A stretch of 64,000 nucleotides of DNA from Candidatus Nomurabacteria bacterium (GCA_026395965.1 JAPLXS010000004.1:686-64685), one strand, 5' to 3'. Counted from the first letter of the stretch, positions 27,997-38,565 are shown. Made by a program: numbers and translations. Notes: generated by a model from the sequence alone, not told the origin.

Positions 27997-28067
27997 TGCC
28001 AGATCGTCTAATGGTAGGACACCTCCCTCTGGAGGAGGTTATCTTGGTTCGAGTCCAGGTCTGGCAG
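27997..28067 (+). tRNA. tRNA-Gln (CTG)
   Basis: U1:A72 acceptor TGCCAGA/TCTGGCA, anticodon stem CCTCC/GGAGG, loop CTCTGGA, T loop TTCGAGT. Confidence 0.8.
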
Positions 28068-28083
28068 CTCCAGGTCTGGCAGC
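28054..28083 (+). repeat. tandem direct duplication of the tRNA-Gln 3' end
   Basis: tccaggtctggcagc appears twice back to back. Confidence 0.65.
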
Positions 28084-28219
28084 CAACACGTGAGCACGAG
28101 TTTGTCAAGGGTATCGTACGGGATAACCTACGCACGAGACGCGTCGGGTCCCAAACACCCAGAAGTCTCACGTGAACTATTCAGTCAAAGCATACCTGCT
28201 GAGAGCAGTATTCAGAGAA
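28084..28219 (+). ncRNA. candidate GC-rich structured small RNA, class unknown, co-oriented with and downstream of tRNA-Gln
   Basis: About 55% GC in a roughly 32% GC genome; closing stem cacgtgag/ctcacgtg (28088-28095 / 28167-28174); internal palindromes cgtacg and gacgcgtc; ends at a hairpin terminator; no protein-coding potential. Confidence 0.3.
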
Positions 28220-28252
28220 GAAAAACCACTAATTAATTTTTAGTGGTTTTTC
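28220..28252. terminator. bidirectional terminator
   Basis: gaaaaaccactaattaatttttagtggtttttc. Confidence 0.7.
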
Positions 28253-28279
28253 TTTATAATTTCGTTGATCCATTATTCT

Positions 28280-35120: not shown

Positions 35121-35122
35121 AG

Positions 35123-36865
35123 TTAATACCCAAGTTTATCCAAAAAATTTTCGACATTGCCATCGACTTCGGTAAATTCTCTTTTAAGAAGTTTTATTTC
35201 TGCTCGTACTTTTTTGACATCAATAACTTCTTCTATCTCTGTAGAGTCGATATACTGTTTAATGTTTAAAGTGTACTTATTTTCTGCAATCTCAGAAAGA
35301 TCTACCACTCGTGCATATTTTTCGATCATCATATATCCATCATATGCTTTAATAATTTTTGCTATATCTTGAGGACGAAGACTATTCTGGTTTTTACCTT
35401 CAAGAAAATCTTTATCAGCATCTATAATTAAAATCTTTTCTTTTTTTTCTTTAGGTTTGTTTTTATTAAAAATTAAAATTACTGCAGGTATGCCCGTTCC
35501 ATAAAAAAGTTTTGATGGTAATGATACAATAGCTTCTATTAAGTCATTCTTAATAATCTGTTCACGAATACGTCCCTCGGCACCACCACGGAATAGAACG
35601 CCGTGAGGAAGCACAATACCTGCACGACCATTTTGATTCATTGATTTAATTATATGTAACATAAAAGCATAATCAGCGTTTTTATCAGGCGGAGCATCAT
35701 AACCATCTAGGCGACCAAACTTTGTTTTAAATGCTTCATATTCCCAATCTTTTATTGAATAGGGTGGATTTGCTACTACAATATCAAAGGTTTGAAGCCC
35801 ACCTTGTTGATTAAGAAATTGCGGATTAGCAAGAGTATCACCTCGACGAATATCTGCACTATCAAGCCCATGAAGAAACATATTAATTCGAGCAATTGCA
35901 AAAGTTGCTAGTTCTTGTTCTTGTCCATAAAGATAAAGTGTCTTTGCAATTTTTTCACCAGATTTCTGTTTTAAATAATCATATGATTCTAAAAGGAAAC
36001 CGCCTGATCCAACAGTTGGATCATAAATATGATCTTTCTGGTGTGGTTTAAGAATACCAAGAATCACTCGTTCAACTTCACGAGGAGTATAGAAACTTCC
36101 ACCTTTTTTACCAGCATCGGCAGCGAATTGTTTAATTAAATATTCATATGCATCACCAAGTAAATCAGAACTTATGTATGTATTACCAAAATTATATTGC
36201 GAAAAATGGTTAATAAGTCTTTGAAGTGTTTCATTTGGAAATCTATCTTTATTTGCAAAATCTAAATCATCAAAAATTTTATCAAGCTTGGGACTATTAG
36301 CATTTACTAATTTATCAAAAATATTATTTAACTTTTGCCCAATGCTTTCTGCTTGTTCGGTAACTTTATCCCATCTACAATCTTTGGGTACTTGAAAGCG
36401 ATGATTATAATCTGCACATGCGATAGACTTGTCGTTATATTCTTTCATCACAGTGTTGTATTCTTCATCCCACACATCACTCATTCGTTTATAAAAAAGA
36501 AGACCGAAGATATATTTCTTATAATCAGAACTGTCAATTTTACCTCGAAGAATATCTGCACTTTTCCAAAGAAATGATTCAAGTTGAGGAAGTGTGAGTT
36601 TACTACCCATTTTATCTACAATGGCTTCTATGTCTTGAGGTCGATATTTTCGATCCTTACGAGGACCTACACGAAGAGGAACGAGGGTGCCGTCTTTCTC
36701 CCAGTTTCGTAAAGTATCTTGATGAATAGAGAAAATCTCTGCTACCTGACTGATAGATAGTAATTCTGGCATGCCTTTAAGTTTTGATTGTATATCTTTT
36801 CGCATAATTGACAGTAGTAGTCTATCAGATTCCAAATATAAAGTCAAGTGTTCATAGGTTTTCAT
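35123..36865 (-). CDS. hsdM: type I R-M N6-adenine DNA methyltransferase HsdM with an N-terminal MerR/Xis-like HTH extension
   Basis: NPPY motif (VVANPPYSIKDW), HsdM_N helix LESFLWKSADILRG; N-terminal ISQVAEIFSIHQDTLRNWEKDG HTH. Confidence 0.9.
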   Translation of the reverse strand: MKTYEHLTLYLESDRLLLSIMRKDIQSKLKGMPELLSISQVAEIFSIHQDTLRNWEKDGTLVPLRVGPRKDRKYRPQDIEAIVDKMGSKLTLPQLESFLWKSADILRGKIDSSDYKKYIFGLLFYKRMSDVWDEEYNTVMKEYNDKSIACADYNHRFQVPKDCRWDKVTEQAESIGQKLNNIFDKLVNANSPKLDKIFDDLDFANKDRFPNETLQRLINHFSQYNFGNTYISSDLLGDAYEYLIKQFAADAGKKGGSFYTPREVERVILGILKPHQKDHIYDPTVGSGGFLLESYDYLKQKSGEKIAKTLYLYGQEQELATFAIARINMFLHGLDSADIRRGDTLANPQFLNQQGGLQTFDIVVANPPYSIKDWEYEAFKTKFGRLDGYDAPPDKNADYAFMLHIIKSMNQNGRAGIVLPHGVLFRGGAEGRIREQIIKNDLIEAIVSLPSKLFYGTGIPAVILIFNKNKPKEKKEKILIIDADKDFLEGKNQNSLRPQDIAKIIKAYDGYMMIEKYARVVDLSEIAENKYTLNIKQYIDSTEIEEVIDVKKVRAEIKLLKREFTEVDGNVENFLDKLGY

Positions 36866-36900
36866 AGGTTAATTTATATAAAATTGTTATAAAATAAGGA

Positions 36901-38223
36901 TTATTCTATACTAATCTTTTTATTTGAGAATATAATTTTACTCTTTAAACACCCCAATAACTCTCTTTTCTCGACATCTTGCCCCTCTCTTAAAATGTAC
37001 TTAGCATAATTCCGTATATCAATATCCTTAATTACTATTTTTTCTTTAATCCCAAGAACAGACATTTGAAATTTCTTTATCCTTTCCACCTCTGCCTTAA
37101 TTTTTTCTTTTATCCCTATCTCGTCAATATCTATTTTTTCTATTAGTTCCTCAAATTGTTTAAGCAAATCAATTTCATTAATATAGCCACATTTACAATC
37201 TCTGTCTTTTGACTTATTACAACCATAATAAACATGGCGGTGAACATTTCCATTCTTTTGTTTTTTAAATTTCTCATCTGGTGTCACACCCGATCCGCAT
37301 AACCCACAAGTCATTAATTTAGTAAAAGCGAACTCTTTACCCTCAGTTCGGATAACCTGACTTTTCATTTGTAACTGTACCTCATTAAATAATTCTTTAG
37401 TTATTATTGATTCATGTTTTCCTGTATACCAGTTTCCACTATTTTTAGGATATTCAAATACTCCGTAATAGAAATGATTTTGAAGAATTGTATAAATATT
37501 ACCTAAACTTAAATTTTTGTTTCCGCCAGCTGTTTTTAAATTCAAATCAAATTTTAACCAATGATATATTTTTCTCCCACTCCATTTTTCATAAGCAACT
37601 TTCTCAAACATTTTTTTAATAATTGGTGCTCGGTTTGGATCTAGAATAACTTGGCATTTTCTATCTATACGTTTTTCACTTAAATATCCAGTTGGAGGAG
37701 GTCCAGGCCATAATCCCATTTCAACTCTAGTCCTTAGTCCACGTTTTACATTTATACTTTTATTGTCATTCTCAAGTTTTGCCTGAGAACATAAAATCAT
37801 TAAAAGAAATTTTTCATTAGGAGAATTCTGAAACGATTGTCCGTAAGTTCGTATTTGTAAAAGTAATTTTTGATCCATTAAATCTACGAGTGATCCAAGG
37901 TCTCCTGCATTTCTACTTAATCTATCTGGTGCCCATGTGAGTATTCCATTAAACCGTCCACGCCGTATATCTTCCAGTATTTCCTTATATACAGGTCTTT
38001 CTCCAGACTCTTTAGCTGAATGAGATTCTCTTCTAATTTCTACAATTTCAAGTCCCTCCTTATCTGCCAACTGAAGCATTTCTTTTACTTGAGATTCGAT
38101 ACTTAAAATTTGTTTTTCTTCCGACTCTGTTGACTTACGAGCGTATAATACATATCTAATTTTTACTGTTGGAATAACAGCCATGGTGCCTATTAATCCA
38201 ACATTATTTATTTGTGTTTCCAT
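36901..38223 (-). CDS. large serine recombinase (resolvase/invertase catalytic domain, recombinase domain and Zn ribbon)
   Basis: YARKSTESEEKQILSIESQ catalytic Ser region, RLSRN motif, C-terminal CGLCGS...CKCG zinc ribbon. Confidence 0.85.
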   Translation of the reverse strand: METQINNVGLIGTMAVIPTVKIRYVLYARKSTESEEKQILSIESQVKEMLQLADKEGLEIVEIRRESHSAKESGERPVYKEILEDIRRGRFNGILTWAPDRLSRNAGDLGSLVDLMDQKLLLQIRTYGQSFQNSPNEKFLLMILCSQAKLENDNKSINVKRGLRTRVEMGLWPGPPPTGYLSEKRIDRKCQVILDPNRAPIIKKMFEKVAYEKWSGRKIYHWLKFDLNLKTAGGNKNLSLGNIYTILQNHFYYGVFEYPKNSGNWYTGKHESIITKELFNEVQLQMKSQVIRTEGKEFAFTKLMTCGLCGSGVTPDEKFKKQKNGNVHRHVYYGCNKSKDRDCKCGYINEIDLLKQFEELIEKIDIDEIGIKEKIKAEVERIKKFQMSVLGIKEKIVIKDIDIRNYAKYILREGQDVEKRELLGCLKSKIIFSNKKISIE

Positions 38224-38565
38224 ACCTAATGATGTCAGAGAAAAGGTCTTCTGCTAAGCTATCGCTTGTTGGCAACTTGTTGGTAACTTCCTCTGATATT
38301 TTAAGCTATTGCGATAGAATGGGCTTTGAATAATATGGTCGAAGTGATATTATTTAATTACAACTAAATATATAAAGTAAGTAGCCTAAACCTTTGGTAA
38401 CAAAGGCATGGTGAATAAGAGCGGATAAAGCATAAAGAACTCCTAGTCAGAGCTCGGCTTTATCCGCCCATACTTGGAAACGAGTATGTGTAGCTGAAAA
38501 GCTACAAGCTGGCTGGGAGCTTTTTGCGTCTTAGCCAGATTTATAACAAAACGCAAAAAATAACT
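38224..38565. promoter_or_regulatory. unusually long hairpin-rich non-coding region adjacent to the serine recombinase (candidate att/junction or structured leader)
   Basis: 300 bp non-coding in a compact genome; stems gcggataaagc/gctttatccgc, catact/agtatg, ctggct/agccag, cctttg/caaagg; 11-bp direct repeat cttgttggYaa. Confidence 0.3.

Follow-up and report, generated by a model that had tools for sequence, protein, structure and literature searches.

A type I restriction-modification operon beside tRNA-Gln as probable cargo of a large serine recombinase island in Candidatus Nomurabacteria

The question raised by this locus is whether a type I restriction-modification (R-M) operon that lies between a tRNA gene and a large serine recombinase (LSR) gene is the cargo of a mobile element or only a resident of the chromosome. 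The locus is part of a stretch of 64,000 nucleotides from a Candidatus Nomurabacteria bacterium (GCA_026395965.1, JAPLXS010000004.1:686-64685), called the window below; all coordinates without another label are positions in this 64-kb window, and L-numbers (e.g., L104) denote related loci. The original prediction, made from the sequence alone, described 27997-38565 as a mobile defence island that begins at tRNA-Gln, carries two unknown genes embedded in its R-M operon (here rider 1 and rider 2), and ends in a hairpin-rich junction. In this study, we believe that the block is probably the tRNA-proximal cargo bay of a larger, LSR-built integrative island of Patescibacteria, with the R-M operon and its two embedded genes as cargo. 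Patescibacteria have tiny genomes. To our knowledge, they mostly lack CRISPR, and the acquisition and exchange of defence genes among them are poorly described.

The recombinase and the backbone of its island family

The LSR gene (36901-38223, minus strand) encodes 440 aa with Resolvase, Recombinase and Zn_ribbon_recom domains (PF00239, 2e-20; PF07508, 1.9e-13; PF13408, 1.3e-8). Its open reading frame (ORF) is full length and includes a YARKS motif with the presumed catalytic serine. The protein matched the integrase family PHROG 95 (6.7e-64), with a secondary match to PHROG 125 ('DNA invertase'), and its best PDB match was SprA/YokA (E 5.5e-13). No phage integrase in the INPHARED collection reached 30% identity to it, and the best NCBIfam match of the LSR was CcrB, at 100.8 bits against a cut-off of 900. 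The protein is predicted to be an integrase-type LSR.

Scans for LSR homologues yielded 80 metagenome loci (73-87% identity) and 6 IMG/VR loci (58-78%), and the proteins and tRNAs of the window were mapped onto these 86 loci to derive a common order. In 42 of the 86, a gene for a fusion of a ParB-N-terminal-like domain with an N4-N6 DNA methyltransferase (ParB-methyltransferase) and a gene for a TerS-like helix-turn-helix (HTH) protein lie upstream of the LSR in the same orientation. An opposite-strand tRNA gene follows 0.15-9 kb downstream of the LSR in 25 of the 86; it is tRNA-Gln in 12 of these and tRNA-Ser, tRNA-Trp or tRNA-Asn in the rest. The family backbone read from these loci, in the direction of the LSR, would consist of the ParB-methyltransferase, the TerS-like HTH gene, a variable stretch, the divergent LOOT RNA gene, the LSR, a variable bay, a non-coding arm, and the 3' end of the convergent tRNA. 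The window matches the family order, with the ParB-methyltransferase (40218-41507, minus strand; Pfam; PHROG 498, 7e-83), the TerS-like gene (39725-40237, minus strand; PHROG terminase small subunit, 9e-6), the LSR, the R-M operon and tRNA-Gln. The end that had been proposed at 38565 could not be maintained, because LOOT, the TerS-like gene and the ParB-methyltransferase continue the backbone to at least 41507, which the island is predicted to reach.

The 300-nt non-coding stretch beyond the LSR is real (38224-38523), but it was misread as a boundary: it holds the LOOT gene and the conserved LSR leader, not an att scar. LOOT RNA (Rfam RF03000; 38383-38506, plus strand) is present at full length with 77.8 bits against a gathering score of 46.4. 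The divergent intergenic region between LSR and LOOT (38224-38382, 159 nt) contains a leader conserved across the LSR family, including GTTGGCAACTTGTTGGTAAC at 38268-38287 and a doubled GTTGRTAAC motif, and in other loci cargo is inserted just past GTTGGCAACTTGTTGGTAAC. Of seven loci tested with Rfam, six have LOOT on the strand opposite to the LSR, about 160-170 nt upstream of it. A covariance model built from eight confirmed copies (R2) found LOOT in 54 of the 86 LSR loci, 47 of them at 100-171 nt (median 152) from the LSR start, and where LOOT and LSR stand apart, cargo fills the gap. On 1.22 Mb of control loci, R2 gave one strong and one weak match, with no LSR near. LOOT appears to be a near-constant divergent partner of the LSR gene. 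In the literature, no paper was found on the function or partner of LOOT, which appears there only as a test case.

The content of the bay between LSR and tRNA differs from locus to locus, and across the family it consists mostly of restriction or abortive-infection genes. For example, a PLD-SNF2 helicase with an Eco57I-like methylase was found in L024, L157 and L133, two HEPN proteins in L053, a type II R-M system in L104 and L121, another type I R-M system in L123, a type ISP system in L145, a type III system in L099, and a PifA-like protein in L107; type IIG R-M and an Hsp70-like protein were also seen in the family. Two loci carry metal-resistance genes in place of defence cargo, a copper ATPase with DsbD (L072, L125), and in L181 the bay is nearly empty, the LSR stop being about 140 nt from the tRNA. 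Defence genes also occur further upstream of the ParB-methyltransferase, as OLD/UvrD pairs of Gabija type. The stretch from LOOT to the TerS-like gene is variable as well; in the window it holds genes for a bPH_2 membrane protein and an exonuclease III-like protein (Exo_endo_phos) (38524-39728, plus strand; Pfam and NCBIfam), which were not found in other LSR loci. Because a conserved LSR backbone is combined with cargo that varies by locus, we read the R-M operon as cargo of the LSR island.

The chromosomal site was compared in relatives found by a PyrG scan (up to 82% identity). The upstream core, which consists of three genes followed by pyrG, LOG and tRNA-Gln, is conserved in them, and none has the genes of the window after the tRNA; other cargo or none is found there, as expected for an accessory island. 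Of the window, only 46.9-48.4 kb and 59.5-62.5 kb are matched by the genes that these relatives carry after tRNA-Gln. In L024, L053 and L072, an LSR homologue of 63-73% identity lies 1.6-7 kb downstream of tRNA-Gln on the opposite strand, with different cargo. Beside an identical tRNA-Gln, L018 has nothing, and L016, L019 and L021 have only a short structured element. The same chromosomal site is polymorphic among relatives both in presence or absence and in cargo.

The restriction-modification operon and its embedded genes

From the tRNA side, the genes run YgjP, hsdR, rider 1, hsdS, rider 2, HTH-hsdM and LSR, all on the minus strand. The tight packing that had been described was confirmed, with Pfam and PADLOC identities for the genes and intergenic gaps of 2, 2, 4, -4, 2 and 35 nt (counted from the most likely starts, which gene calls on related contigs back). 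The restriction subunit gene hsdR lies at 28852-31761 (Pfam; PADLOC REase_I, 2e-130). The specificity subunit gene hsdS (33097-34209; 370 aa from the second ATG; Pfam/PADLOC and the gene call of L006) overlaps the stop of rider 2 by 4 nt at its start. The hsdM gene (35123-36865) encodes an N6_Mtase domain (Pfam, 2.7e-106) preceded by an N-terminal MerR/HTH_17 domain (MerR_1, 2.2e-8), and its product scored 260.6 bits against NCBIfam hsdM, compared with a cut-off of 242.75. The operon is predicted to be a complete type I R-M system, in which HsdR is an SF2 helicase-nuclease, HsdM an N6-adenine methylase, and HsdS a subunit with two target-recognition domains. Residues 35-85 of HsdM form an excisionase-like MerR/HTH_17 domain in every locus of this R-M subtype, whether or not an LSR is present; this N-terminal HTH could serve auto-regulation of the operon.

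The last gene of the operon encodes a YgjP-like (DUF45) metallopeptidase (28280-28849; Pfam, 6e-43), and such a gene is likewise found downstream of hsdR in L001, L003, L007, L184, L185 and L186. A literature search on YgjP in combination with type I R-M gave nothing useful. A second, stand-alone YgjP-like gene at 60000-60931 encodes 189 aa and has 69% nucleotide identity to the R-M-linked YgjP of L001; the small ORF adjoining it has homologues directly after tRNA-Gln in the relatives L014 and L056. We rejected this place (60.4 kb) as a second R-M locus: the neighbours are an ABC transporter, a two-component system and the like, and there are no R-M genes nearby.

The position of the operon differs among islands. 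In L001, L007, L184, L185 and L186, the R-M operon is divergent from the LSR and lies between LSR and LOOT; the window and L006, an identical 6-kb contig (SRR20698642), have the operon downstream of the LSR on the tRNA side. The hsdM, rider 2 and hsdR genes are 86-94% identical to those of L001/L007 (hsdR and hsdM, 86-91%), and the LSRs only 59-67%. Nucleotide homology to L001/L007 is interrupted exactly around rider 1 and one hsdS recognition domain.

Both slots that hold the riders are variable among loci with the HTH-hsdM/YgjP R-M subtype. The slot between hsdM and hsdS contains rider 2 in the window, L001 and L003, two small ORFs in L007, a 167-aa ORF in L185 and a Shedu SduA_C nuclease in L186, and is empty in L184. 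The slot between hsdS and hsdR contains rider 1 in the window, L007/L008, L184, L185 and L186, a PIN_12 protein in L003, and an MBL-fold protein with a 211-aa ORF in L001. The R-M cassette itself appears to be modular. Shedu-type SduA_C genes were observed at two places, at 3303-4550 of L186, embedded between hsdM and hsdS, and at 1138-2526 of L184, just outside the LSR, and thus known defence nucleases use the same slots.

Studies have shown that genes embedded in type I R-M operons can be defence systems in their own right. For example, TgvAB sits between hsdR and hsdS, and such embedded genes can be autonomous defence systems (PMC11411939). DarTG2 sits between hsdS and hsdR, at a site termed a likely hotspot (PMC12255303), and embedded genes proved frequent in a systematic survey of type I R-M systems (bioRxiv 10.1101/2024.01.29.577857). 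The slots of the window seem to follow this published "embedded gene" ("guilt by embedding") pattern. The configuration cannot be called undescribed, as the original prediction had done, since embedded genes are documented in these three reports and type I R-M systems moved by an LSR are documented too (PMC11470126).

Rider 1 (31764-33092, minus strand) encodes a coiled-coil membrane protein of 442 aa. It is all-helical, with three 63-aa coiled-coil repeats, a C-terminal membrane hairpin made of one strong (293-311) and one weaker (326-345) transmembrane segment, and a conserved C-terminal tail. Its AlphaFold model (pLDDT 59.5) was too poor for a fold search. The family comprises only 53 proteins, and the few with a name are all from Patescibacteria; one homologue adjoins a TaqI-type R-M system.

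Rider 2 (34206-35120, minus strand) encodes 304 aa, with a conserved N-terminal domain and a C-terminal DUF4145-like HEPN domain. More than 1500 homologues of 45-94% identity occur in Patescibacteria, Actinomycetota and other phyla, and those outside the R-M type of the window adjoin TIR, OLD-type, KAP-NTPase and type IIG genes. In the AlphaFold model (42 sequences, pLDDT 89), the C-terminal domain has the four-helix HEPN fold. R258, R261, N262 and H265 are invariant in the 42 sequences, and R258-x6-H265 satisfies the HEPN Rx4-6H motif. The N-terminal domain, about 125 aa, is helical with a beta-hairpin and even more conserved than the HEPN part, for example at D10, C22, G23, Y32, R33, H51, D52, R56, K57 and W59; a Foldseek search against the PDB gave no match outside the HEPN domain. 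A PDB sequence search with the riders gave nothing usable. DUF4145, a HEPN family, was reported from R-M operons in 2013 (PMC3710099), and in RAZR, a defence protein that has been tested, the catalytic domain is a DUF4145 HEPN RNase (PMC13017515).

The riders could instead be accessory or regulatory parts of the R-M system, rider 1 in tethering and rider 2 in the control of expression or assembly, or they could be unrelated passengers. We consider this unlikely but worth weighing. Rider 1 is kept with the same R-M subtype, in the hsdS-hsdR slot of five independent loci at 52-79% identity, which suggests co-function, and the overlap or 2-4 nt spacing of the genes suggests co-translation. Two further observations speak for it and weigh against the riders as defence cargo. 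Neither rider matches PADLOC, PHROGs or NCBIfam, and so no defence HMM recognises them; in L010, a rider 1 homologue stands among housekeeping genes, tsaD/tsaE and HSP20. A further point against the main reading is the score of rider 2 against Pfam DUF4145, 20.3 bits, which is below the gathering cut-off of 23.1 (E 5.9e-4) and makes the protein DUF4145-like without placing it among the curated members. However, both slots elsewhere hold Shedu SduA_C, PIN or HEPN nucleases or are empty, which indicates that the R-M system works without either rider. In addition, rider 2 occurs in defence islands of other phyla without R-M, and its catalytic-type HEPN residues are invariant. We therefore keep to the riders as candidate defence genes. 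The proposal that they are accessory toxins stands in part: rider 2 has a HEPN fold, DUF4145-like below the Pfam cut-off, and both slots are variable, but the HMM searches gave no PADLOC match for either rider. Kinship to PrrC or RloC was rejected, as no match of the ABC-type ATPase/nuclease or PrrC kind was found in PADLOC, Pfam or NCBIfam.

The tRNA-Gln junction, the distal end and the structured RNAs

The gene for tRNA-Gln(CTG) (27997-28068, plus strand; ARAGORN; Rfam, 58.3 bits) would anchor the island on its attachment side. The 15-mer at the 3' end of the tRNA gene, TCCAGGTCTGGCAGC, occurs in exactly two tandem copies in the window, at 28054-28068 and 28069-28083, and so the reported tandem duplication of the tRNA 3' end is correct. 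The copies in 28054-28085 abut with nothing between them; the first has no encoded CCA, and the second is followed by CA (28069-28085, plus strand), and hence reads as a CCA-bearing tRNA 3' end. It stands directly 5' of a conserved non-coding arm. We attempted to construct such a layout from one integration, excision or deletion, and no single event yielded it.

The proximal arm of the LSR element (28086-28262, plus strand) is GC-rich and structured (fold z = -4.1), with CACGAGACGC at 28133-28142 and a bidirectional terminator hairpin at its end (about 28217-28255). In an alignment by eye, it is homologous to the sequence after the tRNA in L104, L114, L119, L169 and L142. Across the family, the arm adjoins the end of the tRNA, or that of the second 3'-end copy in the case of the window, and runs for about 130-180 nt to the terminator that closes it. 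The motif C[AT]CGAGA[CT]GC lies 12-23 nt beyond the tRNA in 10 loci, and 11 of its 36 occurrences in 2.4 Mb are within 150 nt 3' of a same-strand tRNA. No Rfam family matched the tRNA-adjacent arm.

Both ends of an element could be recognised in L104, whose LSR is 87% identical to that of the window. There, the tRNA-Gln 3' end is found as direct repeats of 18 nt on both sides of an element of 8.5 kb, the second copy lying beyond the LSR and preceded by a structured element. The same structured element follows tRNA-Gln in relatives without an LSR at the site (L016, L019, L020, L044 and L056). It is built of five helices, namely an acceptor-like stem of 9 bp, a hairpin, a T-stem mimic of 7 bp whose 3' strand is the tRNA-end copy, and two inner hairpins. 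In the alignment, 90.3% of cells were paired compared with 72.1% in shuffles, and both sides changed in 25 of 39 pairs compared with 12.8 in shuffles and 3-5 in slid controls. Covariation strongly supports reading this element as a tRNA acceptor/T-stem mimic. No Rfam family matched it in the relatives. A covariance model of this terminal element (R1) matches the distal side of the LSR elements in L104, L142 and L116, and in L169 the element is fused directly to the proximal arm. In the window, R1 matched 21168-21291 (minus strand), after tRNA-Asp, with 55.7 bits, and 24-102 (plus strand) at the window start, a 5'-cut copy.

The element at 21168-21291 mimics the acceptor and T stems of tRNA-Asp and closes with 11 nt copied from the 3' end of that tRNA. 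In L016 (12161-19171), tRNA-Gln is followed by four structured elements, each with a tRNA 3'-end copy, which separate cassettes of 2-3 ORFs; this locus has no LSR, and its layout resembles an integron cassette array. In one of the copies the 3' end is that of another tRNA-Gln allele, a sign that this copy may have been imported from a different lineage.

The distal end in the window is less clear. A GC-rich structured segment at 45255-45385 (plus strand), upstream of a 282-aa gene, has short and weak matches to the distal-end region of L142 (45270-45290, 21 nt, 95%) and to the tRNA-end/arm junction (45346-45361, 16 nt, 94%), and no Rfam family matched in 41.4-46.5 kb. This segment may be the decayed distal end of the island, which would tentatively place that end at about 45.4 kb, or it may be an unrelated leader. 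Two observations were made nearby. A 383-aa protein with a C-terminal nuclease domain of the NucS/YhcG-type PD-(D/E)xK kind is encoded at 41828-42979, just beyond the ParB-methyltransferase, and is possibly further cargo. Two short ORFs at 44620-45120 (minus strand), judged by eye as likely an ArsR-type HTH protein and a small CxxC-like protein, lie upstream of an ArsP-type permease and appear to share its operon.

Several results tell against an island with two intact ends. No match of R1, applied unfiltered to the window, was found to the right of the LSR, so the right end can only be bracketed to 41.5-46.9 kb; no distal copy of the tRNA 3' end was found in the window with up to 3 mismatches or by short-word BLAST; and the tandem copy, which is not a flanking direct repeat, differs from the product expected of simple integration. 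Scans of 27-42 kb for repeats and inverted repeats gave nothing meaningful. GC was 0.28-0.34 across 28-38.5 kb compared with about 0.32 for the window, and the profile of GC and skew gave no island signal, so the compositional anomaly that had been looked for is absent. The placement of the R-M operon downstream of the LSR is in the minority, the operon being divergent in five other loci. The repeat-bounded element of L104 leaves LOOT outside, which makes the element model not yet fully coherent. No excised circle or empty site of the window genome was seen. In 38-43.6 kb there are no capsid, portal, tail or large-terminase genes, only a weak TerS-like HTH match (E ~1e-5) and the ParB-methyltransferase, and the six IMG/VR contigs likewise have no structural phage genes in the parts read; they carry defence genes instead.

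On the basis of such results, the block could be a fixed chromosomal remnant, in which an immobile LSR is what remains of the integration machinery of a decayed prophage or satellite, with the R-M operon a mere resident beside it. The missing distal repeat and terminal structure in the window, the inconspicuous GC, the lack of structural phage genes and the odd tandem copy at the junction would all be consistent with decay. We judge it improbable, because the LSR ORF is full length with its three domains and serine motif, and the LSR family is abundant, with 73-87% identity over 80 metagenome loci whose cargo differs, which argues for an active lineage; in L104 the flanking repeats are intact. 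A complete prophage was rejected because structural genes were not found. We keep to the LSR-built island, and we read the element as a probable integrative defence island that may be satellite-like. The claim of a mobile defence island is upheld in that the R-M operon is accessory, LSR-linked cargo at tRNA-Gln and this cargo is polymorphic; the window shows neither a distal repeat nor a GC deviation.

The structured RNAs suggest a bolder idea, which we hold to be quite doubtful. The LSR island family may depend on its own RNAs, LOOT about 150 nt from the LSR start and the tRNA-mimic terminus, for choosing, marking or regulating integration at tRNAs and for building integron-like arrays. In the tRNA-mimic terminus, the 5' strand borne by the element co-varies with the 3' end of the target tRNA.

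It is very improbable that the LSR is a regulator of the R-M system and not an integrase. Such a regulator would act as a phase-variation switch or invertase, like those of shufflon-type hsdS systems. This reading could draw on the seven independent loci in which hsdM directly adjoins the LSR, on the relative orientation of these two genes, which in the window is not that of the other loci, and on the secondary match to PHROG 125. Against it, the Recombinase and zinc-ribbon domains of the protein are of the integrase type, type I R-M is absent beside most LSR homologues, and the orientation difference is explained by the operon standing in the other bay, between LSR and LOOT. The reading was ruled out by a single hsdS without silent copies and by the absence of inverted repeats flanking the promoter, hsdS or the LSR.

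Significance and comparison with known systems

In this paper, we speculate that the LSR inserts the island into the tRNA gene at the 3' end and may retain the ability to excise it. The R-M enzyme would restrict unmethylated DNA. Rider 2 would be a latent HEPN RNase whose N-terminal domain senses infection or the loss of R-M function, and once activated it would cleave RNA as a second, abortive-infection layer; rider 1 may be a membrane-anchored accessory or effector.

The block is a real recombinase-linked accessory unit and ordinary in kind, a local version of known mobile defence islands. The LSR island family is apparently undescribed, and about 90 related loci would define it as a recurrent island that ferries R-M and abortive-infection cargo into tRNA genes. 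The linkage of LOOT and LSR and the cassette-delimiting mimics of the tRNA acceptor are the most interesting leads: LOOT, an orphan Rfam RNA, gains a genomic partner, and a covarying tRNA-mimic repeat is identified as a cassette boundary. Two candidate defence families emerge, a widespread two-domain HEPN protein and a phylum-specific membrane coiled-coil protein. These LSRs share less than 30% identity with known phage integrases and, together with their tRNA-end sites, are therefore candidate genome-engineering tools. If true, RNA-assisted integration would be a mode not known for serine recombinases.

One of the closest comparisons is with the SCC, SCCmec and ECC cassettes, which are moved by Ccr LSRs, carry type I R-M and anti-phage cargo, accrete in tandem and in some cases lack a recombinase (PMC11470126, PMC6222049). 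Like SCC, the island would be an LSR-borne cassette at the 3' end of a conserved gene, with short direct repeats of the target end and cargo that is often type I R-M or anti-phage, and the best NCBIfam match of its LSR is CcrB. In contrast, the LSR of the window scores far below the CcrB cut-off (100.8 vs 900 bits), the target is a tRNA gene and not rlmH, a single LSR replaces the ccrAB pair, and the family has a ParB-methyltransferase, a TerS-like gene, LOOT, a tRNA-mimic terminus and a Patescibacteria host. We rejected membership in SCC on the sub-cut-off CcrB score and the tRNA-Gln target.

The operon resembles the embedded-defence systems PrrC, the Campylobacter rlo genes, TgvAB and DarTG2 in carrying extra genes between hsdM, hsdS and hsdR. 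It differs in that both slots are filled at once and in that the rider families have no PADLOC model; compared with PrrC and RloC, the riders lack the ABC-ATPase/anticodon-nuclease architecture. RAZR (PD-T7-4) is an abortive-infection RNase activated by phage proteins (PMC13017515). Rider 2 shares with it a C-terminal DUF4145-like HEPN domain with conserved Arg and His and a defence-island context, whereas its N-terminal domain of about 125 aa is helical with a beta-hairpin and not a zinc finger, and its Pfam score is below the cut-off.

Rousset et al. reportedly described, in 2022, defence hotspots beside the integrase and att site of prophages and P4-like satellites. The island is similar in having a conserved mobile backbone with a variable defence bay between the integrase and a putative tRNA att site. 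However, its recombinase is a serine and not a tyrosine recombinase, there are variable bays beyond the LSR as well, on the side away from the tRNA, and no capsid, Psu or Delta-type satellite genes were recognised in the element of the window. Finally, the array of L016 is like an integron in that a structured element, repeated with compensatory base changes, stands between cassettes of 2-3 ORFs. It differs from an integron in having no IntI tyrosine integrase and in starting at a tRNA gene, and its repeat differs from attC in imitating the acceptor and T stems of the adjacent tRNA, whose 3' end is copied at the end of the repeat.

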